Assembly: GCA_965649765.1 (NCBI GenBank) | Contig: OZ287754.1 | Location: 37,510,001-37,574,000, forward strand | Direction: 5' to 3' | Length of the DNA stretch: 64,000 bases | Origin: Bispira polyomma | Lineage: Eukaryota | In this document: positions 20,411-61,230 of the stretch, one piece after another | How the letters are laid out: each line of letters starts with the position of its first letter | Position numbering within the stretch: position 1 is the stretch's first letter | Translations under genes and position numbers: made by a program | Notes under the pieces: model-generated | What the model saw: the letters and a program-made list of their open reading frames with translations, nothing else | The model's database searches: none | Told to the model about the DNA's origin: nothing

Positions 20411-21465
20411 TTGCTTGCAGTATTCTGGTTTTATTTAACTTCCTATATATCTTTTCACAAATCTGTTGATAGAACTAGACTAAGTAATCCTGATGAAGTA
20501 TATTTAAATGTTCCATATTTTGTACTTTAATACATTAATCTAAGGTTCACTTTGAACGTAGTTTCCCACATGATGTACCAAAGCTGTGCAATGACCTTTA
20601 AAGCTTTAAAAATGTAAAAAGCACTAGCTGTTTTCTTGTTGTTCACCGTTTCTCTGGTTTAGAGATATGGTTTTCTGGTTTACAAAGTGTGCCTTAGAGA
20701 GATTCCGCTAGCATTGAGATTGGGTGTTTGGTTGTTGATTGAATCCAGGTAAAATTTTCCTCTTATTGATTTAGATTGAAGTTTCTTATTTTAGTTGTAT
20801 GTTACATATAATTACATTTGATGTGAAATCACCCAGTTTCTCACAAACAGTATTAGACAAAGAAGTAACTTAATCCAAGATATGAATGTGACACAAACCA
20901 AGATAAACCGAGCCGCCTAATGTTATTAGCCTTTACTTAAAGTAAATCTCAAAACAAGCAAACAAATCCAATAAAAATCTAATGTGCTACAGCTCTCTTG
21001 TAGAAAGTGCAATTTTTTTAATGGAGCTTGAGTTTCATTGAATTTTATTGAATTAGGTAGTAGGCAAACCTTATTGAATCAAAGCTTTGTGGCCATTCAG
21101 TAGCCTATTTCCGGATTAATAATTTGATATGTTCGAGGTTATTGACTTACTTGTGTCACCACAGTGGACTATCTGGTTACAGTTTCTAGAACTATTTGCT
21201 GAGTTAGGGCCCCAACATATAAATGATAAAATGTACATTGGAACCTCTATTGCCCAAATTTCTCTTATCCAAAGATTTGATTTGATCAGCTTAATCTTAC
21301 TCTCCCAAAAATGTACATTTCTCTGTTGCTTCATAATGAAATACAGCTTTATACCTTCCATTATATAAATGTGTTCGGATAATAGAAGTTCCATCACCGA
21401 TTTTTTATGACATGTTTGTAGACAAGCCCTAATGGGCCAAGTGTTTTCTGTGTCCACATTCTCAC

Positions 21466-21588
21466 CTGTTTCTGCTGACTCTGTAAGGACGTCTCAGTTA
21501 CCAGGCTACTTCTGACGTCATCAGCAAAGTCTGATTTCTTTAGAACCTCAATGGCAATAGGGCTGGCCATGGTATGATCACTGAGAGC
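21466..21588 (-). CDS. Exon of an unidentified minus-strand gene
   Basis: TTTTTTTCTAG acceptor, CAG|GTGAG donor, 123 nt open (ALSDHTMASPIAIEVLKKSDFADDVRSSLVTETSLQSQQKQ), phase 0-0. Confidence 0.6.
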
Positions 21589-24500
21589 CTAGAAAAAAAT
21601 AACGAATCAGAACAACTAGTTAGTTAAGGTGTCTGAACTGTAAACCACTGGCCTTTAGCAAGTCTACCCCCAAATAGTAAATCTATCAGAGAAAATTAAC
21701 CAAATAATTTTTTTTTTTTTTTTATGAGCTGACATGTAATAAATAGCAATATTTGAACTCTTAATTCACTTTAATATTAGGAATTAGGAATATTTTGAGT
21801 CAGTTCATCCCCTTTATAACCATTCTCCAAAACAGTTATCCAAGTCTGATAAAATAGTTTGGTCTAAAGTCCTGTATATGTCGATGTTATTGTGTTTTTG
21901 TTTGTAAAATTTAAAAAAATCCATCCAGTCTACCCTCTAATGTAGTCAGTGAAACAATTAAAAAAATGGAAAAGTATAGAAATGTCAGAAGCAGATCCAA
22001 TTCACAATTTTAAGTAAAAATGCTTGATGTTGTACAGGTGTTGAATGGGTTCAAATCAAATATAGATTCATTTTAATGATGCTTTGAGTTTAACGTTGCT
22101 TTTAACTATTGTGCATTATATTGTGACATGAATTTCATTTGATAGAGAACACTAAACAGGGGTAACCACCAGTCATTAACTTGGACCCTAACCCATATCC
22201 CTGATTAAATGTACATGTAGGCATCCATTTCCTCTATAATATGCCATAGTTGACAAAGGAGGAAAATATACAAAAACAGCAAAAAAATAGTACCTATGTG
22301 AAGACAACAGCTGAATGAACCAATAGGCAATTTTACAACATCAAGAGTAATGAGCTAATAAGAAAACCTTAGCTTGGTCCATTGATATTCCATTAACAAG
22401 GAAGAGTTTCACAAAAGAGAGAGCTATCAAGGCAGACGTCTGTGGATGTAGTTTTGTCACACAGTTCACCTAAAAAGTTTGGAATAATCATCATGCCATT
22501 GATTGTGTAAATGTAACTATAAATTTGTCTATATAGCACAACACCTGAACAGGCGTTAATTATGTACCAATAATAACCCTTTGTTATGAAACTTCTAAAT
22601 ATTAACTATGTTAACCTTTATAAGCACAATAGCAATTATTTCACTTGTCTATTGATGACTACATTCATTACCACCACTTTTTGCTAAGTTTGCTGATGTA
22701 ACACACGACAATACATTCAATATCCATTCTTTTGGGCATTTGTATGTATTGATATTCAGTTTTATACACAATGCATTTAGCTACCTTTGTAAGTGTAATT
22801 AACCTGCCATTCAACATCCCATCCAACTAGCACCAGTAACTGTCATTTTGCTATCCGAAGTCAGAGGGTTGGTGATGACCATGTATCAATGTCCTGAAGG
22901 TTATTTAGCATGTCACCTGAGAGAGTGCCACATAACAGAGGCCTTTCATACTAAGTGGTCATCTGAAACACTATGTATCTACTTGTATCTGGGAGCTCGA
23001 GCTTGGGATATATTCCAGGTCCTCTGCTTTCAAAACCCATATTTCCATAGCGGCAGAATATCCATTAGTGAAAGCATTGGCAGATAAAAGCCCTGAATCA
23101 CCAATGCCCCTCCTCCCTGGATATCAGTAAATTACAATAATACATATTCTCAAAAAGTGAATGAAAACATAACTGATAATGCAAGGAATTTGATTATGGG
23201 CTAATTTTTCCACGTTTCAAGGTTTATTTTGAAGTGACCTATACTGGAATTATCAATATTTATCAATATGACATCAAAGAAATATTTAATCAGGCACTTC
23301 TGATGCACACAACTGCTTTTTGTATATAGTTGGAATGTTTTTTGATCTGACAAAAAAGTATGCAGAATAGTTTACAGGAGCTTAAATAGACAGTTCTCTG
23401 AGAAGCTGCAGTGGTCCAGAGTCTGCTTTAATATCACCAGTCTCTCACCTCTGGGAACAGTGGGCTCACAGACACTTCTTCCGTCATGCGGGGAAGTTTT
23501 CGTGGTACTTGCCATAGGCTGGCAGTTTCTAATTAATAGTACTGCTTTCCCTCCACCAATATATTTGGCCTTTTTCAGTATAGTCAAAGATAAATAAATT
23601 CAAATTGTTCTCTGATAAGGGATAGGTTGACAACACAACATTAGATTGTCTTCAGAAGGCACATTTTGGCGAGGGATGTTATCTTTCCTTTGCAACTGTG
23701 GCTTATGACTTTACTCGGAATAGAATCTGAGACCATCAGTTCCAGGATCAGCTACCTGAGCAATAGACCATTATAGTAGTAATGTCAATTGTGAAACAAG
23801 GAAATGACACTCATTCACACACAGTTGTCACTGAGGAACAATAGGATGTAATTAAATTCTAATCATAACTTTATATATATCTTACATTGAGTTGTTACAT
23901 TGCACATACAATGATCCAATTAAAATTTTATCATTATTGCTTGAATTGTAATCGTCCATGTATCTTAAATGTCACCCACTCAAACATATGGTATCTCCAT
24001 TTAAAGAGAATAGAGAATTGATCACATAATTAATGGAGTTATTTAATGATTTGCCCAAAAACATCTCCTTTGTTGGATGGTTAACATTACGTGTCTCATA
24101 CTTATTGGTCACTGAACAACAGATCTCTCAGAAATATCAGTGGGTTTAAGTGATGCTTAAAGAGTTTACAAATACTTTATATTAATTATCAAAATATATT
24201 AGTACATATAAGGGTAACTGTGAAGAATAACAACAAAAACAGCAATTAATGAACAATCATTTCTTTTATCAAAGAAATAAAACATAGAAAGTTTTTCAAC
24301 TGAGAAAAGTTTCTAGAGACTAACACAATTATGACTGGTCTTAATACTGCCATAATAATATAACATTCGAATATAATTCTAAATTGCTAGTGTTACCATT
24401 TCATAGAAATGTCTGATATCTTGCTGACGTTATGCACATCTTTCTGTTTGACTTAGTTTTAAAATGCTACCTGTTTATTACCTGTGTATTGTGAACCGTA

Positions 24501-24835
24501 TCTACACTCCTTTTTATTTGACTCATTAAGTTATCTACAATGGCTTTCTGTTTATTATTTACATAGCTCAAAGTATCAATCTCAATATGTATCTTTTTTG
24601 ACTAACAAAATATATATAAATACCCAAAAGAAAGAATATGATTTGTTAAGTTTAATCTTAATAAGAGGGTTATTTTCTGAGTAATGAGCCACCAATCTTT
24701 GGAACAATTGAGTCTGCATGTTACGTAATCAAATGGAAATAAATGAGATTGGCATTTGAATCTCACATGCTATAGAACGATGGACCTTTTATTTTATTTT
24801 CTTGAATATTGATACAATTAAGTGTTATTGTGACT

Positions 24836-24843
24836 TATAAATA
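24836..24843 (+). promoter_or_regulatory. Candidate TATA box of VWA paralog 1
   Basis: TATAAATA about 95 nt upstream of ATG 24934; comparable position to the TATA boxes of paralogs 2 and 3. Confidence 0.5.
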
Positions 24844-24933
24844 GAAGGGGTCTTGAGCACCAAAGATCACACACCCAGAGTGGGAATTCTTCAAGACAAC
24901 CAGGTGTGATTTTGATAAGGACAACATTCCAGA

Positions 24934-27900
24934 ATGAATAGCCTGTTCGTACTTGTCTTGGTGGCGGCTACTTGTGGTAAGCATGCTGTATTTGATTTTG
25001 GATTTAACACCGCTTTCAACACATTGTACAGGTCATGTCACGATGGGCAGCTTTTAGAGCAGTGGATATACTAATTGGTCAAGACTCTACACTTTAAACC
25101 AGCCGTCATCGGCAAATAACTGGCAACTTTTCCGGTCTAAATTTGAATCGAATAGGTGGGAAGCGAGTGTGTTGGTACTGCGCTACCGAGGTCTGTGTAA
25201 GCATGTTTGAATAAGGCGCGGGGGTGGGGGGGGGATATGATATATTTGAGCTTTTTGTTGATCCTGAGATATTATATGGTCTATGTATGTGTGTATTCCA
25301 GTGTGAAAGTATGTATGTAGTACTGAAATGCCTCCCCCTTAATGGGCGGAATAACCATGTCAAAATGTTTCAGGTCAGTAGGGCTTTTTCAGGAGCTGTT
25401 GTTAAAGAGCAAAGCTCTTCGTATTCACGAAGGGACCAGGTCTCAGGCTTAAATCTTTAGAGAGTAGTGCTAAAGCATTGCTGATAAGCAATGCCCATTG
25501 GATAGATTTTCCATTAGATAGCTAGTATTATATAAAAACAAACTATCACTACTAAAGTCTTAAATGGAAACCTCCAGCATTAATATGTATTTAACTTTCA
25601 GAATATTGTGTTTTCAAGCTACATGTGTGGTTAAGATTTTGTAGAATAAACCAATTACCTTGTATGAAAGCTACCTATTAATTGTAAAAGTACCACACCT
25701 ATGAACTAAAACGTCTTTTCCCAAAGTAACTAAAAAAAAAAAACTTTTTCAAAACCGGTAAAGTTTTTTACTCAAAGAAGGGGTGCGGTAATGTGTTTAG
25801 ATACCCTGGTTTTGTATATGACTTGTACCGTCCATATCATTAAGATTCTTAGTCACAAGTGGGGAACAACAATTTGTATTTTGTTTTCTTTAACGTCACT
25901 TTCAATTCACATTTTGTCATGTCATGAAGGGCACGTTTGTGGTGTTTGGTTGTTGGTCTATTTTTGGGTTCTGAAAGCCAACCTTTGGCAAGTGTACTGC
26001 TAATTTCCGACATACATGCCCAAGTCAAGGTATTCATACACAATACCGCAGAGAGATATTATTACTAAACCACTGAGGCCCCTTGAAGAAACTAACCTTC
26101 ACAACATATTTTTAAAATATTTGTTGTCACATTTGGGGAGGGATGCAGCCACCTGTAAAACTACTGGTTTTGGGTGTCAGTCATACCCCCCACATCATTA
26201 CGTCAAATGTGAGGGGCAGCAATATGTAAAACTGTTTTAGGCAGTGGTTTGAAGTGACGCTTGAACCCTCAGCGTCATAACAGTTTTAGTCTCAGATTTG
26301 GGGCAGCAATGTGTAAGCATACTCATTGTTTTATGCATTGGTTATGGGCATAGCCCTACGTACACTCAAATAATATGGTGTTTTTTGGCTCAGGTGGAGC
26401 GACAGTAACATGTTAATCTACTCTGTTTTAGGTACTGGTTTGGGATCTCACCAATACGGTCATCATCATCATCATCATCCTACACACAAACATGAGCCAT
26501 GTGACATCTGTGAAGAAGAAGACTTTTTAGGATTTGGTACACCGTCCAGTAAGTGTGGATGTTGTCCCTGGCCGTGCTGCTGCAAGTGCTTTGAGAGTCC
26601 AGGCGAAGAGCCAGGTGAGTTTGAAGGGGAAGGAGTGTCCGCTGGACAGTACAATACGTCAGAATTTGGAGTGTGGCGTTCACTCTACTTTAAACAATAA
26701 AATTAACTGTATCATCCTGTATAAATCAATACTTTAGGCATTCTTGTTATCTACAGAACAGGTTCTTATATGAACTTCTTCATTAGAAGTTTATTTTAAC
26801 CATGTATGAACTTTGTCAGAAGTAGTTTGTCAAAATAAGATGTCGGGGCCGCGGTGGCCTAGTGGTTAGCAAGCATTGCGTTTCACAATCACTGGTCTGT
26901 CACCTCTGAGCGGCATGAGTTCGAATCCTGTCGATGCCTATGTGGAAAAGGTGGTAGTTCCTTACTGTGGGCCGCTGGTTTCAGTGCAGAACCTTGATCA
27001 ACTGTATGCAGTGTTTCCTCCAGGGTTTCCATCGACCCATCCCAATATAACCTAAACAGGTACTAGAGTGGACGTTAAATATCCAAATAAAAAAAAAAAA
27101 AAAAGAAGTTTTGATTCCGCTTATGTATATTTTAGTGGTTTCTTTGTCCCAAACGGAATATGTTGATTAAATTTGGTACATGCTTGAAATGCTGATTTGG
27201 CTTGGTAGAAGACATTCATTTGACGTTTAATTTTTTTCAATTTAAACCACTGTTTATTTTAACCATACCACTCCAAAACAAAACTATCACCAGGAAATAA
27301 TTTTTTTTATTTATTTATTTATTTTTTTTTTTGAGGGGGGGGGGGGGTAGATTACAGTTAGCTGGCGTCACTAAAACACGCCACAGAGAACTTTCAGCAT
27401 TAAATAACAGCCTTATGCTGTATATTAATCTGGTATATTAATATGTTGCAGTATGTAGAAGTGTTCTCGACATTATGTGGGTTCTTGACTCTAGTGGATC
27501 CATAGGAGATATAGACTGGATTGTGGCCAAACAGTTTGTTTCCGATGTAGTTGGTGAACTGGATGACATTGGACTCAACCAACTGGTAAGAATATAATGC
27601 ACTATTTATTGTGTATCTTTCTCCAAGGGAAGGGGCCGTGACGGCCCAGTGGTTAGAAGTGATTGGGAATGCTCAAAGGTCCCTCACCAATGGGGCTTTC
27701 GAATTCCGTTGATTCCTTCATGTGAAAAGGCTGTCACATACTTACAATAGATAAAGGGTTTCTGTCACCATTAAATACAAACTTATGATATAACCTACAC
27801 TGTTGAAAGTGACGTAAAATCTTTAGGGGTCAGTAGATTGGCTGTCATAGGTATATAACTAATTCTATTTTAGTAAGTACCATATTTGACGTCATTATCG

Positions 27901-30900
27901 TATAAAAAGAACAAAGTATTTTGTAAATAAGAGATGGCATATCAATTTACATAAATAAAAATATTTATATAAAAATAACTATAAATTCAATTATATATAG
28001 AAAAAAAGTCAAAGAAGTATAGAACGTGGGCAAATATTAAACTGTACATATATACTCTTTGTCATAATATCTACTTCACCATAGTTTATAGGAGAACCCC
28101 AACATAACTATGTTTTGATACCTTTTATTTAAACATTAAACAAAAGTTATATATATTAAGGCCTCCATAATGTGGGGAAAAATATTAATTTAGTTGTTTT
28201 TTAAGTCACTTTTAACAGCTGAGGTCATATCACGAAAGCCAGATTAAATTATAGATGGAACTAATTCTGAAGCATTTTAATACACTGACCTACAACCATG
28301 TATTTTGCACAAGAAGCGGACACGATTCAAATCCAACTATTGGTGAGAGGCAAATAATTGTTAAGCAGGTGCTTAGGTTACCACTAGGGCACCAAGGTCC
28401 CTAGCCCTTCAATAGATATTTTAACAGCATATAAAAAATAAGAAAAAATTTGTGATTTACCATGTTTGTTACTGTGATACAAATTTTACTTTACTTGCTC
28501 TTGAAATGATTCATTTGGATTAATTTCAGGTTGCCATGACGACCTATTCCACGAATGCTACTTTGGAGTGGTGCTATGATGGGATTGAGACCACATCCAA
28601 ATCAAAGTTAAATGCTGCTGTGGAAGATCTAATACTAAAAGGAGCTTTCACAAACACTGTGGAAGCTTTACAAAAGGCTACCGGATGTCAGCAGTCACCT
28701 TCAAACAGGTAGCAAATAAGCTGATATATTTCTGATTCTATTTCCTAACATATTTATTTAATACAAGTCAAGTGCTGAATTGATTGGAATTTAACCCAAT
28801 GAGAGCTTGCACAAACACTGTGGAAGCTCTACAAAAGGCTACCGGATGTATGCAGTCACCTTCAAACAGGTAGCAAATAAGCTGATATATTTCTGATTCT
28901 ATTTCCCAAAATATTTATTTAATACAAGTCATGTGCTGAATTCATTGGAATTTAACCCAATCAGACAGGTACTGGCTGATTCTAATGTACATATTTCATT
29001 TTATTGGTTTGTAAAATACAAAACAACTAGGTTTTAAGTTTGCCTTAATACAATAAGTGAGTATCTTTGCTGCGGATTGAGGTCCTATTAAACCTTGGTT
29101 TATTTGATTGGTGTATCATGTCTGGACTATCATGGCTGCATATTGGGGGGAGGGGGTAATAATAAGTAATTAATATGAATAACCTATAACCAGTGATCTC
29201 TTATATTTTGAAGGCCTGAGGCCCCAAATGTATGCATTGTCATGACAGATGGGAGGACAACACATAATGTAGCGCAACTTCCAGACGTGGCAGCTAAATT
29301 TAGGCAATATTGTGACAAGTAAGTCAATGGATCTGTGTGTATCCAGACTTTGTTTGATTTAAAGCACCAATTACGGAATCACCCTGTATAACTAGATTAT
29401 AGTAAGTTTCTGTCTGTATGGGTCTGTCATTACACTCAAATCACCTTGTATGACTAAATAATAGTAATTTTCTGCTTGTATGGGTCTGTCTTTACATTTT
29501 GAATTCCTTGTATAAGTGCAATCATATCGTTCATTTGAACAATTAAATACTTACTTTAGCCATGGAATAACAACGAATGTTTTCTGGCAATGATGATTTC
29601 AGAATGGTCGTGATTGGTGTGACAACAACTTTATCAGAGGATGAACTAAAACTAATTGCTGGTCCAGGTGGGAGCATATTTGAGGTGGATGACTACCAAG
29701 CCCTGCAATCCATCTTGAGTAACATCAGAAAGGTAAGATGGTTTGCCTTTAGACATTACTTAGAATCAGGTTGAAGTACTCTTGGACAAAGGACCACTTT
29801 GAATGCCACGAACTTTTCAAGAGAACTTGTGATATAGATCATTGGTGAATTAGTATTCAGATTGGCAAATTTTAATGCCCAATACCCAATGTTAAACATA
29901 ATGCCAAATGTGTTACAATGGAAAAAACTCAAGGAGTAAAAACGTGGTAGAATTCAAATGTTTTAAGTTGTGAGGATAAAACGGAATCTGCTAAGCTAGC
30001 ACCATCAGACAGACCTGAATTCCAGAATGAATTTTAGGTCATCACGGTTACATTGTAGAGACACAATGTGTACTTTTCATTTAGTGAGTGCAACATTTTG
30101 AGATATTTAAAAAAAAGCTTTTTTCACAATAAATAGGAGAAAGCTACTTATTAATGACCGATGCTAAACTGAAAAAAATGCAGGTTTGTAATTATGTATC
30201 TCTTTCTGTCTCTCTATAGGAAATCTGTGTGGGAGGAAAGAAGCCTATGGAAGAGAAGTGTTGTAAGTATGCTACAGTACCTAAGAGGTTACTTTTAAGA
30301 AGAGACTTACTTTATAAGTAGAAATTTGAATTTCATTCTAGCTATTTAAACTAGTGGGTTTGGATAGAAAAACATTGCTTACAATTAAATTTGTATCATA
30401 ACTAAAAATTGGTCAATAGCGAAACATAATTTAAGTGAATTTCTTTAAAATGTAAAATAGTGAAATTTCCTTTAAGCTAAAATGTTTACATATATACAAG
30501 TATTCTGAATATATTTGCATTTGTTACCCCAATTCATGCTTCAGATAATTTCATTTTCTTAGTGAAGACAAACTATCCGAATAAAATAGAATGCAAATTG
30601 AGCAATGCTAATCTTTATTTTCAAAATGTACTGTTCTTTTCAATGTTGACAAATTAGCAATTTGAATAAGAAATATTTTAGAAAAATATTCTGAATAACT
30701 GTTAAATAAAGTTTCACATGTTATGCACAACTTTGGCCAGACAAAAAATGTTGACATCTGGAAAACTACTGACAAGAGGATATATTTCATCAATGCTGTT
30801 CTGAAATGGCCTTAGTTTATATTATCAATAACTGCTCCCAATTGTTTATTCATTGGGGTTTATAGAATTTAATAAAAGAAATGTGTAAACAAAGCTATTT

Positions 30901-31895
30901 TTTAACATAATTTGCTTAACTGTAGATGTAAAATAGATCAATACAATTACATGTTTCAGATTTTATTAAATTACAGGTGTGTAAAAAAATGAATAAAATG
31001 ACCTTTTTCAGATATTACTAGACTACAAGTGTATGAAATAGATTAAATTAAGTAAAGTGTATTCCATACAATGACGGGACTTTCCCCGTTATTGTTGCTT
31101 TTTATAGAAACTAGAAGAATACTTTATCTAGTTGATCAATGACTTTTCAATTAAATAAAACTGACTAAAAGTTCTGCCAGAGTGAAGAAATTTGAAATAT
31201 TCCCGACATCGGCTAGTATTTAATTAAAAAAAATCAGAGCTGCCACTCACAAACATTTTTAGGATGCAATTGTAACAATTGTCTTCGCCAATCAGATGCT
31301 TTGAAAAAATATGTTAAGCCAATCAAATTGGTTGAAACAAATTAAATTGAAGAATATTTTTGTTTGGGAATCTGCCCCTTGAATTTGCTTGGTCCTTTTA
31401 CCCACACCTCTTGGCAAGAGGTACATCCGGTTATTAATAATCAGTATTAACAGAACATCAACAACATGTAATGCTAAACCTTAAGTATTTATGATAATAT
31501 TGGAAATACACTCTACAGAAAGTGGACTAGAGCAAGCAAACCATAATAAGAAGCTCTAATGTAAACTCTACAGTATCCCTATCTTTAATCAAACTGTATA
31601 TTGAATTTAGTTATATTAAGCTCTTCTAAAATGAATGGTTACAAGTATAATTTATGTCCCTATACAGAGACTTGTACCCTCATTTCAGTTGGGCCTGGGT
31701 TTCAGCTTGATATTTTGGGAGAATACAGATCTGCGAGTATAATTCTTAGTATATAATGTGTATATAATAAAGCATAGATTGAATGGTTTGGTTTTACTAT
31801 TAATCATCACAGTCTGCTGTTGTACCCCGGCGCAGTTCTTTGGTGGGGGCGGAGCTTATTACTACACTGATCCTTATGACCACCATCATTATTAA
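24934..31895 (+). CDS. Secreted Cys-rich single-VWA-domain protein, paralog 1 (299 aa, 8 coding exons)
   Basis: Hand-spliced join(24934..24976,26432..26614,27452..27585,28530..28708,29214..29318,29603..29732,30220..30262,31813..31895) = 900 nt, all GT-AG introns, open frame. Signal peptide MNSLFVLVLVAATCGTGLG; His6; CDIC-x14-CGCCPWPCCCKC; VWA with LDIMWVLDSSGSIG, TNT, VCIVMTDG, VVIGV; C-terminus CFCCCTPAQFFGGGGAYYYTDPYDHHHY*. Exon structure mirrored by paralog 2. Confidence 0.92.
24993..25192 (-). mobile_element. SINE family B copy in intron 1 of paralog 1
   Basis: TTTAACACCGCTTTCAAC...GGTCATGTCACG...GGTCAAGACTCTACACT is the reverse complement of the family B 3' part. Confidence 0.6.
26845..27103 (+). 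mobile_element. tRNA-derived SINE, family B (best-preserved copy)
   Basis: A box GTGGCCTAGTGG, B box GTTCGAATCC, 3' ATATAACCTAA...GTGGACGTTAAA and a poly(A) tail. Confidence 0.8.
27632..27820 (+). mobile_element. SINE family B copy
   Basis: GGGGCCGTGACGGCCCAGTGGTTAG...TTCGAATTC...GATATAACCTACACTGTTGAAAGTGACGTAAAA. Confidence 0.65.
28642..28963 (+). repeat. 161-bp tandem duplication spanning the exon 4 / intron 4 boundary of paralog 1
   Basis: Units 28642-28802 and 28803-28963, highly similar. Confidence 0.9.
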
Positions 31896-39064: not shown

Positions 39065-40677
39065 TTTAACTTAATAAATTATGAAATATTTTCCTGTGTT
39101 GACCACTGTACCATTATGGTTCTCTTCCATGTAAAGACATATTATTTTTTATTTAATTCTAGTTTTAACAGTTATTGATATTTCATTAAAACCAGCTGAA
39201 TTCACGATTTTTTTAAAAAAATTTAAACTGTTAAAATTGTTGGTATGGTTTATGGTCCAAACATAAAAATTCTACCTTTGGTATTTCAGAGAAAAGAGAA
39301 AAGCCATTTTGGGCCCCTCTTATGTTGGCTAAGCTTTAACTAATACTTATATACATAATACTTGACAAATACTTTAAGTACAATACTTAAGTCTGCCAAC
39401 AAGTTAGTTTCAGACTTTAAGCTCATAGCAGACACCTTGCCGACATACTGACAAACACTCTGTGGCTAGTTTCACCCAATCAATGGGACTATTCTCTGCT
39501 GTCTACACTTATTACAATTAGTTATTACACCATTCCATTATTTGTTTGGTTAAATTCTATATATTCTTTTTATGTAAATTATTGAACAGTGGATTCAATA
39601 GCATCTTAATTATACCATCTTTTTCTACTTCATCAAGGTAATAAATGAGTGTCACACACAATGCTGATTTCTTTGAACATTGTTACCGTGTCACTGTCTT
39701 TAGAGACTGTGACTCATAAATTTTAATTATCTGCATTCAGTGTCATGCCAATAAACCAATTGGAAGTTTTCAAGATTGCAAATCAAACTTTGAAGGTATA
39801 TGCAATAATTTTTCAAATTAGAATAATGGATGACATGATGAATATTGGGTGAAAACAAAAATATGATTAATGAGATGTACGTACAATGTATTGCCTTATA
39901 ACAATAGTTATTACGTATTGTTGTGACAGTCATTGCTCTATGCGTTGACATTATTCACATAACTGCTATTTCTTACTGAACTATTCTGCATTGAACCTAA
40001 AGAGTTACAACAATAAAATTGTTTATGATACTTGCAATCATTGAAAGGGGTATTTCTTCTGTTGAACAAAGGCCTAATAAATAAGAATGGACCTGAAGAG
40101 ACTGCTTCATTTAGATTCTGTGCAATTTATTTCCTCAGCCCCTAAACCATTATTACTATGTGTTACTTATATATATATATATATAGAGAGAGAGGTATAC
40201 AGATATTTAAACAACAACAACAAACACTTCAAAAGGTTAGAAAAAGTGTAAATATATTTTGGTTTTCTGTTTGTTTGGTTCCAACCCTACTTTTGAATAA
40301 TATTAGAATTATCTGATAAACTTAGACTCACTTATCAATTCTTGAGAAATTTATTCCCTTATCAATTATGTGATCAATTTGTTCTCTTTACTCAATCTTT
40401 CGTTTTTAGGGGGTCAATATTGTTATTATTCTGTAAAGACTGATTTAATATTACCCAGTATTTGATATTGAAGGCTTAAATAAAGAGATAATGGTTGTGT
40501 CAAAAGTAATAGAAACTGGTGAAATCTCTCACAGCGTCATCATAGATGGAATAAAAACACAAAAAATGCAACAATTTAATCACACCAATTAAAACATTGT
40601 GTTTGGCCATTATCATTATTGCAGCAATAAGAAAAATTCGCAAATAAAGGAAACATTGGTTTTTGTCCAAACATGGT

Positions 40678-40685
40678 TATATAAA
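40678..40685 (+). promoter_or_regulatory. TATA box of VWA paralog 2
   Basis: TATATAAA about 80 nt before the ATG, followed about 25 nt later by Inr-like ACAGTT; conserved in paralog 3. Confidence 0.65.
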
Positions 40686-40761
40686 CACCCCTCTCACCAG
40701 GACAGTTACTGTACATCTGACTGTCAATGACATACATACGTACATACAACTAAGCCAGACC

Positions 40762-43700
40762 ATGAAGATTCTGTGTTTGCTGATTTTAGCAGCCAGCTGT
40801 GGTAAGATATTTAAGTTCTTTCTGTGTAAGTCTGCATACATTATTTTTATTATCCACTCGGCCATGAAATATGATGTTTTGATGTGCAATACAGAAAGGG
40901 TGATAAAATGTGTTTTATTATTTGCTGTGACATAATTATGACATTTTCGTGGTTGATACGGGCCTGGTGATAACATGAACTGTATCACTTGGCGGCACCT
41001 GTAAAAATGCATTTGACAACTGTAGGTAGTCACAGTAATTTCAAAGGACTTGTAACAACATATTGGTATATTAAACTTGATTTTTACTTTTTTATGAATA
41101 CAAATTTGAAGCTAATTCTTTATGGTTATTACTCTGTTTTTTTCTGTTTTCTGTTCTTTTTGAATCTATATGATCATTATAATTACATTTTATAACTGGA
41201 TAATAAAAGTAAAACAACCGTTGTGGTGTGCATATTGAAAAAAATGTATAACTCCGGGAGATAAGACAAGCAATACTCGCTCTACCAGGCTGTGAAAGTA
41301 GTGTTTTATCGTCTCTCATCATATGTATTTTTAATATACACCACATTGGCCCGTTAATATGATGATAATAAAAAATGTAATATTTACCAGTTTTTAGAGT
41401 TAAATTTATTCACTATTTCAACACAAACCTAACCACAAATAAACATTACATCAACTAGAAACCTTAAGCAATATACTTTGATACTAAATTCCGGAAATTT
41501 TAATACTTTCTTAATATGTGTTTAAAGTTTATTCTTTAAGGTACCAACTTCAGATTTGCGTTGTGATGGACTGGAAGGTTTTAAAACGTCAACAAAAACT
41601 TATATATGTACAATATATACAGCATATTTTCAATATTTTCGTATTAAAGTTAGTGATAAAGTGGATAATAAAAGTCAAACAACCCTTGTGCTGTGCATTA
41701 CTGGGCGAGTAATGTGCATTTGTTTTTTTGAGTCATATACTGTTTTAATATACTACCCATCGCCAATTCTGAACGGAAGGTTGACAATTCTGAACAATTC
41801 AAATAGTTATTCAAAAACTGCACCTTATAAATTTCACATATGTGACCATTGTCAGTGCAAAAAATGGTATATCACGGTTCAAATGAATATGTAATGGTAA
41901 CAATCGTTCAGAAGAATTCCCATCGGCCATGACAAGGGTAGGTTTACTATTGTATTTAAACCTATAGTCAGTGGTTGGTATTTAAAGCACTAAGTAAAAT
42001 GCTCTTGTAATAAATCATTGTTCCCCAAGTGTATTACATTGTTTTTGTATGGTACAGAACCAAGTAATGACCTTAATATTAAGTGGTTATTAGACCTACT
42101 ATTTGTGTATTTGCACCTCCAAGACCGAGATCAAACTCTGGTCCTATGTGTTCTTGAATCGGCATTTAACTCATCATCTAATCAGTTTAACACTATTTTA
42201 TTTTTTGTGTATGTTGTAAACATTATCTGATCAGTTTAGCACTCTTCTGTGTTTCTTGGAGGGTTTGTAAACATTATCTGATCAATTTATCACTGTTTTT
42301 CCTTTCTATCCTGTTTTATAAACATTATCTGATCAGTTTAGTACTGTTTTGTATTTCTATGCTGTTTTTAAACATTATCACACTGTTTTGTTCTTTTTTT
42401 GGGTGTTTTGTTAACAATGTCCAACCAGTTAGGCGATGTTTGCTTTTTTATGTAATTTGGAGTTGTTTTAATAGCCCAGACAAACCCTTCCCCATCTGTT
42501 AGAGTTGTTGTTTGCCAACCATTTCTGCCTGTGTTTCAGCCATCAGTCTGGGCTACCATTCTCAACAAAGGACCAGTTGTGGTGCCTGTGAAAACCATCA
42601 TGCCCGAAAACATGATATGTCAGTCAATAAGTGTGGATGTTGCCCGAAGCCTTGCTGCTGCAAGTGTGTGCAAATACCAACCGATCCTGGAGGTAATGCC
42701 TTTAAATAGTTGACTTCTTAAAAACTAAATATAGAATATTGGCTGATACAATTTACAATATTTCCAGTGTTAGAAGTCATCCTAACTTTGTACAAGCATT
42801 TAACAGTGAATGCCTCAGACGAGTTCTAATTCCTTTATATTCAATCTACCTGTAATAACATAAGTTATTTTATTAGAATCCGTCTTGTGACTGGATTGTC
42901 TACTAATATCCTGTACATCGTGAGCATACAGGTGCATCATAGGCATATAATTTGTAAATTTAGTCAGATTTTACTTCGCTTTTAACAGCTTAGGTCATAT
43001 TGTAACAGCGGTGAACAGCCAGATTTAATAGTGGAAGAAACCAGTGCTGAAGTACTGTAAAACACCGACCTATGCCAAGTACCTGACAAACTTTCCCACA
43101 TGAAGCAACAAATGAGATCCAGACTTGCATTGTTGAAATACCATTGAAAGTGAAGCAAGTGGTTCTAACCACTAGGCCACCACGACCACCTATAGGCCTA
43201 CAAGCGTACCATGCAGTGAAAGCACCAGAATTAGTTCTAACTGTTAAATATTGCACAAGCATGGCAAGTCAGTCATGAAGGTTAAATTGAAAATTGTTTC
43301 AGAAATACCAATCATAGCTTAGAATGCTTAAGCATCACAACCAATAGCTCACCTTAATAGTAATACGGTTTCCCGCCTTTTCTTCTATATTAGCATTAAT
43401 TAGTTGCAAGTCAATGAAGCAACACACGAAAATTTAACCAACTTAAGTGATTGAGAAACACAGGTACAGTGATAGTACTGGAATAAGTTCTATCTGTAAA
43501 ATAAGAGACACACCATACATACTCGGTTTGACGCAGATTTGTATTAGTTTACTGTATATTTTTCTCAGAGGGTATGAGGATTTAGGAGGTAAAGTGTTCT
43601 TCAAGGAATAACCCCTTATTGGAGGAATATAAATACATATCCATCCCAAGGTTTAAGTGGGTTTCTGACAGAATAAAAATATAAGTGCATTTAAAACTGA

Positions 43701-46700
43701 ATCATGTTTCTCGAGGAACTATATATATTGGCACCTATATACTATATGGAGGAAAATGGCAGTGGCTGTTCCTACATTTAATCCCATCTAATAAAAAAAT
43801 GCACACAAATATTAATGATAAGTGTTATCCAGTAGATTCCATTTATTTCCTATAGTCACTGTTTTCCGTTAATGCATTGCTAAATCTTCTTAGATTAATT
43901 AATCTTCTGAAACATTAATATCTTTATATATTACAAATCAGGCTTTTAATTATTTCTGAAGTGAAATAAATTGTGAAAACAAAAACAAGAAGGTGGTCAC
44001 TATAATAGTATATCTGTATTTACAAATTACTGCATAATATTTTGCTCACCTTAACATGGGCATAAAACAGTTGAAAGTATTTAAATTGAATTGTGTCATT
44101 CAATAAAAATAGCTTATTTCTGTAATATTACAGGCTGTTAAATAAATTTGGCAGTAAACTTGCTGAAAGTCAAGGTGGTTTGCCATTCAGAAATCTTTAT
44201 CAACTTCTCTATTCTGATTTCCTTTACCAGTAAACCTCCCATTGCAATATAATAAGCAGTAGTAAATATAATGGTATATTTTCCCCTTTCCTCATAAAAA
44301 TTGGTCAAGTTCTGCTTTTAAATCCTTACTAAAATGACATTGAGTAAATTTTTCTTGTTAAAAACTATTCAAGAAGGACTTTGATAAAGACGCCTTGCAA
44401 TTGACATAGTAACTAAACCATTAAACTTCAATTTCGATTTTCCCGAATAAATAAGATTTTCTAATATCTGTGTGGGGGTCACTTACTATCATCACTATAG
44501 AACAACAAAACCAACAAGAGGTAGTGTTATGATAAATGTAAATTTGCATTTATATAGAGCTTGCCTTTAAAGCGCTGTTTTCAGTTTACACTCCCAGCCT
44601 GGGTTCTGCCAACGGTCAACCCCAATTGTTTACTCTCAGTTCCTCAAGGGAGCAAACTAGCCATGCCACATATGGTGCACAAAGACTAACATTTATACAC
44701 CTGGGTGGAGAGGGACAACTTTGTGTAAAGTACTTTGTCTAAGGGTACAACCTCCAAGCCTGCAGCGTGGATCTAACCTGGACCCTCAGATCCCTCAGAT
44801 CCAAATCTGACACTCTTACCATATGAGTACACAATACATCATCTAGGGATAATGCAGTGGTTTTTGAATAGGGTTCAATGGTAAAACCAATTTCCTGAGA
44901 ATAATGATTACCAATTTAAAATTTGGAAAAAAAATTTATAAACAGAAGCAATAAAGAGCATTGTTTTAATATGGGGTGTATAGTGACTTAGTTCAAATAA
45001 CGACAAAATTAACCATATAGTTGTGTACATTATGTATCATGTTGTTTTTGTCACTGTACACAGAATGCCACATGGTACTAGACTTGATGTGGATTGTTGA
45101 CTCGAGTAACTCCATAGGATCTGATTGGATTTTCGTACAAAATTTTGTCAAGGCAGTTACAGGCTCACTCAGTGATCTTGGTTCAGATCAACTGGTAGGA
45201 ATATTGTTAACATAAAAGATAAAAGTAGTTGATTCCAACCTTTGCAATTTTTGTAAGCAACATCCAGATTCTATTTACCACCTTTTGACTCAGTGCACTT
45301 ACGTGGACAAATTGTGAAAAAATATATTAGATTGGATGTTGAATAAGTTGACTCTTAAAATAGAGCTTTGCGATTCTAGAAAAAATTGTATATGGTTTTC
45401 TGAATTTACTTTTACCTATATATCTATCTGCTTATCATTTTACACGTGGGTAATACTTTTACAATTTTAAATATATTTGATAGTTTGACCCTTTTTTTCA
45501 TCAGTAAATATTATTTTGTTTAATTCTATTATTTGATTTTTGCATCAGGCTGCTCTGGTATGCTATGGTAATAGAAGCCCCATGCCTCTGAAACATTGGT
45601 GCTTTGGAGGTACAGAGACTAATAATATTGGCAACTTTAACTCTGCTGTCATGGGTTTAGACCTAAAAAAAGGAAACACAAATACAGCGGATGGCATAGA
45701 CCAAGCCCTGTTATGCTTGGGATCTGGAGAAGATAGGTAATGTTTAATAGATCTAATAAAGGGTTAATTTACTGTCATAGACACTCGTCCCCCTTTGATT
45801 TAGAATGCACATGGTTATTGTTGGACAAAAGAATCAAATCTGGCCTCTTCTCTTTGCAAATTTGGTACAGATATGTCCAGTAAATTTCAACAACAAATTA
45901 GAAATAATTGAATATTTGTGAGTCAATATCCAACATAACCTATGATTGATCATGATATCTGGCAATGACTCAGCGGGCATTGATATGATACACATCGATG
46001 AGCAATAGCTGTCCTTAATTTGATAATAAATGATTAAACTATAATAAACTTCTATTTGTCAACCTTCTGTATCCTCAACAAAGATTCTTTTAGATATTTC
46101 CCACAGTAAGGTTCTATACATTTGTTTTTCATGCTTCACCCATGAATCACCAATACAAAAGTCTGTCCAGCAAAATTATTAGCTTAATTTATATTTGATG
46201 TGCCTCTACATATTTAGATAACACTATCGAACAGTGTGTAATGTTGTGAAAATATTTTAATTATTATGCTAAAGTATATTTTCCAGGGTTGAAGCACCCA
46301 ATGTCTGCATTTTAATGACTGATGGCAAGTCAAATGATCGTACAGAAGACCTTCCAGCTTTAGCTGTAGACCTAGACATTAAGTGCAATGGCAAGTAAGT
46401 GACTTTCACAATATATAATGTATGTAAGTTCACTTTAATGGTGTTTGACAATTGCAGAGTTGGCAAGATGTAAAATCTTGAAAAAAATCTGCGGTGTAGT
46501 AGTATGCTGCCATGGTGAGTTTGGATCTCAGCCGCTGATTTGTATGTGGAAAGTTGGCAGCATACTTGCTGAAGGACAGGATTTTGCAGAACAAAAAACC
46601 TTTACTGACTAACATGTTCTTACTTCCTCCACCAGTAGACTGACCAACGTGATATGACACAAAATGTGTTAAATGCAATGTTAAGCTGAATCTAAACTAA

Positions 46701-48429
46701 ACACAAGGTAAAAACGGAAAACTACAGCTAGTGGATGGACACTGTGTATTTTTTTTTGGGGGGGGGGCTGCTTACTGTCATCGGTCTATCAGCTGTCTCC
46801 TTTAGATGACACTGTTACCCCATTATCCTTTTTAACAAAAATCTTTCTGATCCATTGACTATAATTTATCGATGATTGTGTTTTTCCATAACAGTCTCAT
46901 CTTATATATAAGAGACTTTGACAATATGCCTACTGTGTATACAGATGGCCTTTTAAATTGTCCAACTGCTTTCCTAATAGGTGTTGTAATATACCATAGG
47001 TAAATTGTAAAAAGTAGGGTCACAATAACCACAAAAATGGTGTCACAAAATTACTACCTTTCCATATGAGTCACACCAACTCAGTATTGTGTTTTTATTC
47101 CAGTGTATTAGTTATTGGTGTGACTGATGACGTGGATGCTACTGAACTTCTGGTAATTGCTAATAATAAGATTGAGAGGGTGATTACAGTTCCTAGTTTC
47201 CCTGAACTGATAGGAATGCTGGACGATGTTATAAAGGTAAGAGTGATTACTTAGTATGATGATTGAATGCATATTTCTATTGTTTATTGTATACACTATG
47301 CTGTTAAATATATATAGTGTATATGATCACAAATACACATGTAAATCGAACATCTCCTATTATATCATCATGTATATACATTTTCACTGAATGCCCATAT
47401 AGACATTTAATATATGTTCCATTTAGTTATGATGTAGTCAAGATATTTATATATTTTAATGTGTTTTGGTTTCAGGAAATTTGCCCTGAACCTCAATTCG
47501 AGGAAGAATGCTGTGAGTAGAATTAATATAAATATGTTAAATACTGAATGCAGATTTTACTATTTGAAAAGTATCAAACAAATGGAAGGACAATCCTCTA
47601 AATTTCAGCTTTTTGTACACAGAGGGTTTGTATATACATATTCTGAATATAGCGAGATTTTCTATTGTTTTTCTTTTGTCTAGAATTTGTCTGCAGACAA
47701 TGTACATAACCTGTGTGTACTATATATTTTATTCAGACTCTTACATTTTACAAGGTACATGCTGTAATGGTCAAGTTAGTTTAACTGCTTTATTTTATTA
47801 GAAGACATGACACCCACATAAAATTGCTATACACCTGGTCTTACTATTACATAACATGCCTTCATATGAGAACTGCCCGCCATTCTCTATAGTTTACAAC
47901 GTACAATTGGTTGGCTTTGCTGAGGATTATGTGTGACTCATACCACTTACCACTACCATGTAATAAAAATATTAATTAAAGCATTTATAGAGCACCTAAC
48001 TGTTGAAAACATCCTGTAAGGTGCTGTTATCCAAATAGGGAAGGTGCAGGCGCAAGCACAATGTTGTTACCAAAAGCATCAGAAAAGAAAGTAAGGATTT
48101 AGTGGTCCAGATAGTTTAACTACTTTGTTTACATTGTTTACAATGTGTTACATACCATGTCTTTAAAGATCAACAAGATCACTAAAATACTGGGCTTATC
48201 ATACACTGAGCCTATAGTATTACAATGAGTACGGTATTCAATCAGACTTTAATCTCTTTTCTTCAATCTGTTTTCAGTTTGTTGCTGTCCCCCTCCTCCA
48301 ATGATTGAGACACACAGCCATCCCTACTCGCCGTATGGTTACCAACACCAACCCTATTCCTACCCTCATTGTCCTTATCCATATCCTCTTCCACCTTACC
48401 CATATCCTTCTCCACCCCAACCATACTAA
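40762..48429 (+). CDS. Secreted Cys-rich single-VWA-domain protein, paralog 2 (313 aa, 8 coding exons)
   Basis: join(40762..40801,42540..42692,45064..45194,45549..45736,46287..46394,47104..47236,47476..47512,48278..48429) = 942 nt, GT-AG introns, same phases as paralog 1. Signal peptide MKILCLLILAASCAISLG; CGAC-x14-CGCCPKPCCCKC; VWA LDLMWIVDSSNSIG...TNT...VCILMTDG...VLVIGV; CFCCC followed by a Pro/Tyr/His-rich tail. Confidence 0.92.
42170..42430 (+). repeat. ~51-bp minisatellite in intron 1 of paralog 2
   Basis: CATTATC recurs at 42221, 42272, 42323 and 42373. Confidence 0.75.
42958..43186 (-). mobile_element. SINE family B copy in intron 2 of paralog 2
   Basis: GCTTTTAACAGCTTAGGTCATAT...CTAACCACTAGGCCACC (reverse-complement A box). 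Confidence 0.65.
44525..44822 (-). mobile_element. tRNA-derived SINE, family A
   Basis: Reverse complement of the 5432-5710 head and core. Confidence 0.7.
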
Positions 48430-49734: not shown

Positions 49735-49957
49735 TGCATAGCATGACCCAACAGGGGTCTGCTACTTCAGTTCTACCACAGAAAATTTATATGACTACCT
49801 TAACCCCTAGAGATTGATTCTATCACTACAAATTATTCACCCAACCGTGAATAACATACTCTAGCCAATCAGAAGCTCTCCCTCTTAAAGTGGCCACGTT
49901 TTCTGTAGAGATCTTCCATTTTGGAACCAGATTCAGCAGTATTAACACGGACATTTT
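49735..49957 (+). repeat. Split direct repeat A1 (223 bp)
   Basis: Matches 55370-55592 with 2 substitutions by eye; contains AGCCAATCAG (CCAAT box). Confidence 0.95.
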
Positions 49958-50078
49958 ACAGCCAAGTTTATGAAGGCTCTGCTGAATCTACATTTTAGTA
50001 TTTTAGTTTTTATCTTTTAAGTTTGTTTTTAAGTATATACTACTTCTTTTACGTGTTATTATATCCATTTGTGTTATT

Positions 50079-51225
50079 ATGGGAAGGACGGCTGAACGTC
50101 AGTGCAAACACCCCAAGAAAACTCCTGCAACGGAGGGTAGAAAACCTGCAAGAAAGAGCACAGTAAAAAAGGCAAGAGTTGGTAAGAACACTCGCATAGA
50201 TGATAGTATTATTACAGACCCCAGTGGTCTGTTTGACCAGGTAGAATCCATTCACTCGTCTCCACCTACCCGCTTACCACAGTCGAGTCAGGCCGAGTTA
50301 TCCTGCCGAGACTCTGAGATGTTGTCAATATTAAAACGATTAGAAGAATCAAACGCATTATTAACACAAAGGTTAGATCGCGTAGAGGCCAGGGACTCCA
50401 GCATCCAGACAGCGTCTCCGTGCTTACACCCGCCTCGCCTTGGTTCACAGGCCGTGTCAGCAAGTAACACCACAGTTCAACCGAGTCTGGCAGCAGCCAC
50501 CTCACTCACACGTTCAGACTACTCAACGGACGCCATTGTACCGAAGATAGATGTCTTGAAAGCCCTGCCGGATGTCCAGGCGATGGTCAACGAAAGACTG
50601 GCAGAATATAATCTCCAAGCTCAGGCTGCGTTTACACAAGGTAAGGCTGCTCTTAGACAGAAGTCGGGAAGGTTTAACACGACGGACATACCTACTAGCA
50701 ACCCAAAAATAAGATGGGCAAACGAGGGCTGGACGGGCAGCTCTGCGCGCAAACGATTACCGTATGACGACTTATCCCTCCCACAGTGGGCATCTGGCCA
50801 GTTGGCCAATGCTCTACAGGTCACAGACCCGACTGTTTCCAGAGAAATCATTCAACAGGTGGTTTTGTCATTGAAGGACGCCGCCACACTACCATGGGAA
50901 GTCGTTCGAACGGCTTGGGCACTAAACATGACAGAAGTCGAAGAGGGTAGACTGTCCTGGGGTGACACGACGCAGTGGGCCCTTAATCGCCTTAGTGCTT
51001 CACAGCTGGCTATGGTGAATTCGAAAGCCAACCACGGTTCGTCTACTCATTTGTAAATTATATAATTCTGGAAAATGTGTACACAAAGCCGATCACAACC
51101 AATATAAGCACGTATGCTGGTACTGCGCCACAGTACTCCACAAAGACGTTTACCACCCGGAGTTCAAGTGTTATAAGTCCAACTCAGCTAAGCAAGCAGA
51201 GTCAGGATCACTTTCCAACCAATAG
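50079..51225 (+). CDS. Retrotransposon gag-like ORF1 (frameshift between 51019 and 51054)
   Basis: 325-aa ORF 50079-51056; the Cys/His knuckle CKLYNSGKC...HVCWYC...HPEFKC continues in the +1 frame to TAG at 51223-51225. Confidence 0.85.
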
Positions 51226-51333
51226 GACATCGACCAACTGCCAGTTCAAGGTACATTTCGTCAGAACAGTGAAAACAAAGTAAAATGTAAAAATCTTAGA
51301 AATCAAAGTAATACAGGTGTAACTACACCGAGT

Positions 51334-54186: not shown

Positions 54187-54192
54187 TTTCAG

Positions 54193-55170
54193 GGTCAAAC
54201 CACATCACACAGAGATTTACAGACTCAGCTTGGCAGAGGATCAACTGTGCCTTACGACCAAAGACCACCCAGACTTACAACAATCAATTCAAAACATTTA
54301 TTTCCTTTGTTTGCTATGCTGGCCTAACAGACATTACTACACACTCAGTCATAGCATTTTTGGAATACTTAGTACAAACAGGAGCTTCTCCACACATGAT
54401 TAATAACTACCTCTCTGCAATCAAATACATGGCCAAAAAAGCTATATTAGGACATAAAAATCTTTGAGAACAACACGGTCTCCATGTTCACCAGAAGCCT
54501 CACACATACGTCACTATTTAGGCCCTCACCTAAGGGAATTTTTCAGATTGAACACCTTTCATTAATCTCCAGGGCATGTGACATCCTTAGTGATCCACCT
54601 TTGTACAGGGCAATATTTATGTTGGCTTTTTTCGGGTTCCTCAGGATTTCTAATATAGTCCCACATTCCAGATCAAAGTTTGATCCCACCCGTCATTTTC
54701 TCAGGAAAGATATAATATTTGGTAATCCAGGGGCACATTTGATTCTCAAATGGGCAAAGAACCTTCAAATTAGATCACAAGTTCACATCATACAGATACC
54801 ACTACTGGAGAATAAAACCTTATGTCTTGTTACAGCTTTGCAAGTATTGCTGACCTCTAGACCACTTTCCACACATTCACCATTGTTTGTCAGTGCAACA
54901 TTCCCACATCACCCAATTGTGGAAACACATGTGCGTTCTGCACTTGCTTCAGTACTTACACATGTGGGGATTCCCACAAAATCACATAGCTTCCACACAT
55001 TCAGAAGGTCAGGGGTTACATATGCCTTCAATAATAACGTTTCACTCCAGAACATAATGGCACATGGCCTTTGGAGGTCATCTGCAGTTTGGTCATATCT
55101 TCACCAGAATTCCCAGGCTGCCTCTGCTGTCCCTCTCACCTTTGCCTCTTCCATACCTAAACTTTCTTAG
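54193..55170 (+). CDS. Retrotransposon tyrosine recombinase (frameshift near 54435-54465)
   Basis: Catalytic domain 54484-55170: GFLRISN (R), WAKN (K), HTFRRSG (HxxR), HGLW, WSYL (Y). The N-terminal core-binding domain (ALRPKTTQTYNNQFKTF...FLEYL...NYLSAIK) lies at 54195-54467 in another frame. Confidence 0.9.
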
Positions 55171-55177
55171 TTTGGCT

Positions 55178-55592
55178 TGGGTGTTTTTAAAATTACTCTG
55201 CATTTTAAACCATTATGATGTTTTACCCCTACCTGTAGATATACTGAACTAACATGTACAGATTTAAATAAATTCCTCAAACCATGGTTTTACTGTCTTC
55301 AACATATAACCACACAAAATTGCTATCCGACCTTCAATACCGACCTTCCATTTTCACTCAGTAGAACTGTGCATAGCATGACCCAACAGGGGTCTGCTAC
55401 TTCAGTTCTACCACAGAAAATTTATATGACTACCTTAACCCCTAGGGATTGATTCTATCACTACAAATTATTCACCCAACCGTGAATAACATACTCTAGC
55501 CAATCAGAAGCTCTCCCTCTTAAAGTGGCCACGTTTTCTGTAGAGATCTTCCATTTTGGAACCAGATTCAGCAGTATTAACACAGACATTTT
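55178..55592 (+). repeat. Internal B1-A2 junction of the split direct repeats
   Basis: B1 55178-55369 directly abuts A2 55370-55592 (AGAACTG|TGCATAG); B contains AATAAA at 55267. Confidence 0.95.
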
Positions 55593-56205
55593 CCCCCCAC
55601 CTCCCCTTACCACAGCACAAGATATTATGAAGGTTCTTTTCAAAAATTTTCTCCCATTTCACTTATGGCCAATTTGTGGTCCTAAACACTTATCTATACT
55701 GCTAGCTTATGGCATGTAAGCACATACCGAGTTTAGATGGTTACTTGATTACGGACCCACTGCGCCCTGCTGAGATTATTAGAAAAACTCTTGATTCGTT
55801 TGGATTATGAGAGTTTTTGAACTCGGAACTGTGTGGTGTTAGATCCTTCTTCATAACCTACCCTCTGGTGTGGGCTACCAGGGGGGCAATGCTCTGTGAG
55901 GAAGGATGTCTCACTGCTAGGCGAGTCGGTGTCACAAGTTCCGGGTTCCTAAAAATTCATATAGGCCTTTGGCGCAGGTTCATGTACTTATATTTATGAA
56001 ATTTTAATATTTTGTGAATGGTAAAAGATTAATGTGTAATTGTTATGTATTGGCTTAGGGGGCCGTTAATAATTACTAGCAGGTGTCATTTAGGCGAATG
56101 CTAGCTCTCAGATGTTGAATTTCAACTTGCTCTGCTGTTTCGAGGCTTATATCCTCTTATATTGTTGCTGTACTGGCGGTTTTGTTTGTACTGTTGTACT
56201 ACGTA

Positions 56206-56397
56206 TGGGTGTTTTTAAAATTACTCTGCATTTTAAACCATTATGATATTTTACCCCTACCTGTAGATATACTGAACTAACATGTACAGATTTAAATAAA
56301 TTCCTCAAACCATGGTTTTACTGTCTTCAACATATAACCACACAAAACTGCTATCCGACCTTCAATACTGACCTTCCATTTTCACTCAGTAGAACTG
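56206..56397 (+). repeat. Split direct repeat B2 (192 bp)
   Basis: Matches 55178-55369 with 3 substitutions by eye. Confidence 0.95.
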
Positions 56398-61190: not shown

Positions 61191-61230
61191 ATGAAGATTC
61201 TGTGTTTGCTGATTTTAGCAGCCAGCTGTG
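61191..61230 (+). CDS. Exon 1 (signal peptide) of a third VWA paralog; gene continues beyond the window
   Basis: ATGAAGATTCTG...AGCTGTG|GTAAG identical to paralog 2 exon 1 (MKILCLLILAASC). Promoter and intron 1 are homologous to 39250-42240, and the window ends in sequence matching the region about 300 bp before paralog 2 exon 2. Whether the gene is intact cannot be seen. Confidence 0.8.

Follow-up and report, generated by a model that had tools for sequence, protein, structure and literature searches.

The 64,000-nucleotide (nt) window considered here, positions 37,510,001 to 37,574,000 on the forward strand of Bispira polyomma contig OZ287754.1 (assembly GCA_965649765.1), carries two paralogous genes, g1 and g2, whose products hold a VWA domain between two cysteine (Cys) clusters of mirrored sequence. 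The GT-AG introns of this AT-rich window are those of an animal-type genome, and the spliced models of both genes were assembled from these boundaries. Each model comprises eight coding exons (Table 1), giving chains of 299 amino acids (aa) for g1 and 313 aa for g2; 111 of 285 aligned residues are identical (39%), and the phases of all seven introns are common to the two genes (1,1,0,2,2,0,1). The splice model of g1 is further supported by P0013, a relative found as a 281-aa uninterrupted open reading frame (ORF) on a 1267-nt contig, because it is colinear with g1 over every junction, at 51% identity.

The g1 and g2 proteins are assigned by sequence to the VWA superfamily. Exon 3 of g1 alone scores 25.1 bits against the Pfam VWA model (PF00092; cut-off 23.8, E 2.4e-05), with the VWA domain of collagen VI alpha-2 as its best PDB sequence match (E 2.2e-07), and relatives score 88.6-123.7 bits. 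A complete MIDAS, the metal-ion-dependent adhesion site (DxSxS, Thr and Asp), can be read in g1, g2 and the relatives P0013, P0008 and P0009. No second VWA stretch and no other Pfam family was found in g1, g2 or the relatives scanned. The proteins are linear, acidic (net charge -13 to -26) and about 300 aa long, with predicted signal peptides and N-glycosylation sequons in the family; a membrane anchor was not found, the maximum 19-residue hydropathy beyond residue 25 being 0.75-1.54. In the ESM atlas, exon 2 gave no usable match and P0013 gave only generic VWA clusters, the nearest being matrilin-2-like and collagen VI-like. The N-terminal (N) cluster matches no Pfam family and, searched as a profile, no PDB sequence at E <= 1.

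Between the signal peptide and a Tyr-rich tail the chain runs CxxC, CxCC-xxP-CCCKC, linker, C[VWA]C, linker and CxCCC. The initial annotation had described mirrored CCCKC and CFCCC motifs at matched distances from the VWA domain in both paralogs, and the spliced models bear this out: g1 reads CCCKC-x9-C[VWA]C-x10-CFCCC (26554-26589 ... 30226-31823) and g2 reads CCCKC-x9-C[VWA]C-x8-CFCCC. The mirror extends over the proximal five Cys of each side but no further, as the N side of g1 holds 10 Cys (CxxC, CxCC-xxP-CCCxC and the VWA-opening Cys) and the C-terminal (C) side holds 5; the seven-Cys N cluster is itself near-palindromic (CxCC..CCxC). When the C flank was shuffled, CxCCC fell within one residue of the N-linker spacing in 8 of 200,000 trials for g1 and 5 of 200,000 for g2, figures that come from a post hoc test on two related sequences; given four Cys within five residues, the mirror order is one in three of the possible arrangements. 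Judged on the sequences compared, the mirror pattern is a real and conserved feature.

Relatives were sought among 1.84 billion representatives with a profile built from the exon-4 translations of g1 and g2, and 17 matches were returned, 12 of them family-like; the remaining five (P0005, P0007, P0012, P0015, P0016) were set aside as generic or repetitive. P0013 and P0008 each come as a full-length ORF on a contig of about 1.2 kb, P0009 is N-truncated, and the others are short single-exon-like pieces, leaving four full-length chains (g1, g2, P0013, P0008) for the family comparison. A wider search gave 23 matches with five family members, the only addition being the N-cluster fragment P0038; both clusters occur in none of the 16 examined among the other 18 (P0027 and P0037 left out). 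One of these matches, P0035, has CFCCC 14 residues past the closing Cys and no N side; it looks like intron read-through and was left unplaced. A Cys-cluster profile run against proteins of 150-2000 aa confirmed 2 of 262 candidates, both already known, and so supplied no new linker pairs; a word-index search with the exon-3 profile retained none of 113 candidates at E <= 1e-5, a threshold that was probably too strict. In prokaryotic genomes none of 95 pattern matches was confirmed, and plasmids gave a single chance match (E 5). In P0009, which lies on a large contig of genomic size, the frame stays open between the MIDAS and the stop across five of the g1/g2 intron positions; this suggests intron loss or a retrocopy in its source.

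Within this family the mirror is retained in all four full-length sequences, none of which is thus a homolog of the kind without a conserved mirror that the initial annotation named among the results counting against its proposal; the C cluster also occurs in P0009 and the N cluster in P0038. The flanking core of 7 + 4 = 11 Cys is invariant in 4/4, as is the presence of the Cys pair that flanks the VWA domain. Linker lengths (N/C) are 9/10, 9/8, 10/8 and, in P0008, 29/28. Whether motif spacing co-varies across homologs had been put forward as a check; in P0008 both linkers are lengthened together, as pairing of the clusters predicts, though no more than this one case is informative (permutation 6/24).

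AlphaFold2 was run on P0013 and P0008 as monomers. The P0013 model (3-row alignment, mean predicted local distance difference test score (pLDDT) 59.8) has strands at 54-61 and 258-265, and the P0008 model (30 rows, mean 73.9) at 42-49 and 286-293, its cluster block having pLDDT of ~59-71. In both, the cluster strands are eight residues each with mirror-matched ends and are the sole strands outside the VWA domain; read as antiparallel, they set Cys opposite Cys at every cluster Cys and Lys opposite Phe or Ile at the spacer. The upstream CxCC is a strand in neither model. Foldseek identifies the VWA fold, with mussel PTMP1 ranked first for each of the models (E 6.8e-13 and 2.0e-15); the matches cover ~190-220 columns, essentially the VWA domain only, at 25-30% identity. 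Together with the P0008 linkers, the two models give moderate support to the antiparallel pairing of the clusters that had been proposed.

The more literal form of that proposal, four consecutive cross-strand disulfides with the linkers in register as a rigid stalk, is distinctly improbable. Four pairs of Cys do stand opposite each other in the modelled register, and the strands run three to four residues into the linkers; however, adjacent residues of a two-stranded ribbon face opposite sides, which would place three pairs on one face and the fourth, 64:275, on the other, at a type of site that rarely takes a disulfide. Cys56, Cys58 and Cys59 would also be left unexplained, and the long linkers of P0008, which are Pro/Thr-rich and lie between the cluster block and the VWA domain, are modelled as disordered (pLDDT <50), contrary to a continuous stalk. 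It is likewise quite unlikely that the clusters are independent, the N cluster forming a hairpin closed by 56-67, 58-65 and 59-64, the CxCCC pairing with that of another chain and the mirror being incidental. Such CxCCC-CxCCC pairing can be likened to a hinge or collagen-type cystine knot, and the CxCxC positions could be self-complementary about a two-fold axis; the near-palindromic N cluster is also in its favor, as is the mirror order being one of three arrangements open to four Cys in five residues. In neither model, however, is the CxCC strand that this hairpin calls for present, CCCKC and CxCCC lie instead in equal strands, and the joint lengthening of the P0008 linkers would not be predicted.

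The same mirror ribbon may alternatively form between chains, the N cluster of one joining the C cluster of the next in swapped dimers or head-to-tail polymers, an arrangement held to be somewhat unlikely. The modelled register is equally satisfied between chains, the flexible P0008 linkers would permit swapping, and the N- and C-terminal Cys domains of minicollagens are described as reshuffling their disulfides from intra- to intermolecular (PMC4863159). Against this, loop closure within a single chain is the simpler explanation of matched linker lengths, and the terminal disulfide of the VWA domain would keep the clusters at high local concentration during folding. A homodimer prediction for residues 26-272 of P0013, run without an alignment, scored 0.01 and weighs neither way.

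Cysteine parity bears on whether such chains are linked to one another. The total is 20 in g1 and 23 in g2, or 19 and 21 once the predicted signal-peptide Cys are subtracted, with the cleavage site placed by eye; P0013 has 18 and P0008 has 17. The odd counts previously noted are thus recovered in the predicted mature chains, but oddness of the whole chain is not conserved, and because whole-chain parity varies the argument holds only for the 11-Cys core. Among 14 exon-4 relatives, 5 have both Cys135 and Cys173 and the other 9 have neither at those columns, making an internal disulfide between them probable. Alongside the Cys187 column stands Cys213 in g1, g2 and P0013, or a first-strand Cys in P0008, and P0009 has neither member of such a pair. 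As the internal VWA Cys can mostly be matched in twos and the terminal pair would close the domain, an odd core of 11 remains, so that one thiol is likely to be left over for bonds between chains. The N-terminal CxxC is missing from P0008, which does carry a CxC in the tail; under the ribbon model these would project from the same distal end, a suggestion drawn from this one case. The odd core, the CxxC and CCC runs and the nine His of g1 exon 2 would also suit reduced Cys acting as Zn- or Cu-thiolate ligands, with the His-rich N-terminus as part of the metal site. This is highly improbable, since the signal peptide and sequons point to an oxidising secretory route, the His run is absent in P0008 and much reduced in P0013, and no metallothionein or zinc-finger family was matched in Pfam. 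The alternatives considered here partly overlap, and the likelihoods given to them are not exclusive of one another.

The reading considered moderately probable is that a split cystine ribbon-knot carries the VWA domain as its insert, the whole functioning as a disulfide-anchored matrix cross-linker. The family would thus consist of small, secreted, acidic animal proteins with a single VWA domain inserted in a split Cys module. VWA termini are adjacent and closed by a terminal disulfide (PMC3919171); by analogy with that structure, a Cys77-Cys261 bond would launch both linkers from one point, and CCCKC and CxCCC would then close into a ribbon of antiparallel strands with the mirror register. 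Because side chains alternate between faces, three rungs (63-276, 65-274 and 67-272) would lie on one face, much as in the theta-defensin ladder, as judged from beta-geometry. Cys64 and Cys275, on the opposite face, may be capped by two of Cys56, Cys58 and Cys59 folded back via the xxP turn, and the one leftover core Cys, together with the distal CxxC (in P0008 the tail CxC), would bond to other chains. The predicted product is a disulfide-anchored oligomer or network in which MIDAS-bearing VWA heads on paired tethers bind fibrils, e.g., collagen. Further cross-links, in a material resembling cuticle, thread or cement, may come from the Tyr/His/Pro-rich ends, and these ends and the tandem duplication would suit a structural secretion by analogy with PTMP1 and minicollagens.

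Several observations weigh against this split ribbon-knot. The models are of the homologs P0013 and P0008 rather than of the spliced g1 and g2 chains; the register is derived from DSSP strand limits and not from coordinates or S-S distances; confidence in the clusters is moderate (~54-71); and a monomer prediction is blind to the difference between intra-chain and swapped pairing. The flank alignments hold 2-5 rows, and one of them (A8) misaligned a C-terminal CCC fragment onto the N cluster. The linker covariation hangs on one sequence, with the permutation result given above. In the parity argument, one internal Cys of P0013 is left without explanation and g2 carries two additional singletons; these chains evidently tolerate thiols that are buried or free.

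The gene models show further features (Table 1). The alternative g1 acceptor at 26394 was discarded, as it brings a stop codon and the wrong phase. The CxCCC motif is interrupted by an intron in both paralogs (30259-31823 in g1, 47509-48288 in g2), and the C linker sits on its own exon of 37-43 nt, where splice-site shifts would permit a change in linker length. A 161-nt tandem duplication (94%) at 28642-28963 doubles the donor site of g1 exon 4 together with the exon's 3' end; from a weak AG preceding 28804 there could arise an in-frame 66-nt cassette with two extra Cys, which is probably not spliced in because a polypyrimidine tract is absent. TATA-like boxes lie ~85-100 nt 5' of the start codons of g1 (24835-24845) and g2 (40676-40686). 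The first 13 codons of a third copy encode the same residues as g2, and its upstream region is 76% identical to that of g2 over 1127 nt. Duplicates of g2's first intron and upstream region, in blocks 65-81% identical, occupy 60246-63955 around the signal exon of this third copy (61191), and the gene array probably continues past the window edge. A six-frame search of the window with the family profile found no other convincing family exons beyond g1, g2, the third copy and the partial duplicate of g1 exon 4.

Table 1. Coordinates of the g1 and g2 exons and of other features, numbered from the first position of the window
Feature	Position	Strand	Content	Supporting observation
g1, whole coding span	24934-31895	+	8 exons	
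g1 exon 1	24934..24976	+	start codon, hydrophobic signal-peptide-like segment, aa 1-14 including Cys14	GT donor and phase 1 match g2; 9-residue hydropathy peak 3.38
g1 exon 2	26432..26614	+	His-rich stretch, CxxC 26500-26511, N cluster Cys56-Cys67 26554-26589, N linker	7-Cys N cluster invariant in 5/5 rows of alignment A6
g1 exon 3	27452..27585	+	VWA-opening Cys77, first strand, MIDAS DxSxS Asp88-Ser92 27487-27501	
g1 exon 4	28530..28708	+	VWA middle, Cys135 and Cys173, MIDAS Thr161	Pfam VWA E 0.0039
g1 exon 5	29214..29318	+	Cys187, MIDAS Asp192, Cys213	family profile match E 9.4e-13 (profile built including g1 itself)
g1 exon 6	29603..29732	+	final VWA strands, C-terminal helix	aligns with P0013, P0008, P0009
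g1 exon 7	30220..30262	+	VWA-closing Cys261, 10-aa C linker, Cys272	matching small phase 0-1 exon in g2
g1 exon 8	31813..31895	+	remainder of CxCCC (Cys274-276, 31815-31823), Gly/Tyr/His tail, stop	P0013 tail begins almost identically
g2	40762..48429	+	8 exons, 313-aa open frame	phases as g1
g2 exons 1-4	40762-40801, 42540-42692, 45064-45194, 45549-45736	+	N cluster 42632-42667 in exon 2	
g2 exons 5-8	46287-46394, 47104-47236, 47476-47512, 48278-48429	+	Pro/Tyr-rich tail, one extra Cys	
Third copy, signal exon	61191..61230	+	remaining exons would fall outside the window	
Retrotransposon ORFs	50007-51053; 51226-54183; 54451-55167		second ORF reverse transcriptase, RNase H-like (Pfam RVT_1, RVT_3); third ORF phage integrase family	
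Retrotransposon repeat A	49735-49957 / 55370-55592			99%
Retrotransposon repeat B	55178-55369 / 56206-56397			98%

Between g2 and the third copy, 49735-56397 is occupied by a tyrosine-recombinase retrotransposon that looks young, its split direct repeats standing in the order A1..B1-A2..B2, the layout of Ngaro/PAT-type elements. On the minus strand, 21464-21590 resembles an exon, bounded by clean AG and GT and open over ~42 codons; it probably belongs to an unrelated neighboring gene.

In comparing the family with known systems, the closest likeness of the head is to the A domains of PTMP1, collagen VI and matrilins, which share the VWA fold, an intact MIDAS and the two Cys positions of a terminal pair. 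The family differs from these in having a single VWA domain, where PTMP1 carries two (PMC12817120), and no collagen, EGF or coiled-coil segment was detected; a Gly-X-Y run is absent from the g1 and g2 models. In topology the family may resemble TRAP/MIC2, whose inserted I-domain has flanks that are disulfide-linked at the helix 7 end and form a force-carrying, extensible antiparallel beta-ribbon (PMC7351488). As modelled, the VWA domain here would likewise be inserted in an antiparallel ribbon of N and C flanks, and MIC2 ranks 7th among the Foldseek matches of the P0008 model. Unlike TRAP/MIC2, these secreted animal proteins have no thrombospondin repeat match and no transmembrane or cytoplasmic tail, and their ribbon would be distal, multi-Cys and set off from the VWA domain by variable linkers. 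A fairly unlikely extension of the split ribbon-knot is a secreted, membrane-free catch-bond unit in which the tethers, matched in length, would pass tension to helix 7 and the MIDAS would open as in TRAP/MIC2; the ribbon-knot would be welded into a disulfide network, and paralogs may tune reach by lengthening both tethers in step.

The theta-defensin ladder places its Cys at alternate residues, a spacing contained in both CCCxC and CxCCC. Theta-defensins have two antiparallel strands joined by three parallel disulfides (PMC10096437), whereas the family is linear, with strands ~200 residues apart and the VWA domain as the loop, would have extra Cys on the other face, and is acidic rather than cationic. 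The minicollagens of cnidarians are small, secreted and disulfide-polymerised, with Cys-rich ends and Pro-rich stretches, and their pattern CX3CX3CX3CX3CC recurs in one orientation on either side of a collagen helix (PMC4863159). The family shares with them the terminal Cys-rich domains and the stretches rich in Pro, and by analogy polymerisation is probable here; its Cys pattern is a different one, mirrored and set on the two sides of a VWA domain. The family is therefore a member of neither TRAP/MIC2 nor the minicollagens, and also falls outside PTMP1, matrilins and collagen VI. A description of it was not found in the literature searched, although a listing in a proteome table is possible since supplements and most subscription papers lay outside that search. 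The VWA head is ordinary, and the split 11-Cys module is the part without a Pfam, PDB-sequence or atlas counterpart. If the proposed structure is correct, it would be a natural cystine ladder whose loop accommodates an entire folded domain, on tethers that can vary in length; such a ladder could be used in designing domain displays and materials cured by disulfides, and would provide a soluble model of force input to a VWA domain in invertebrate matrices.

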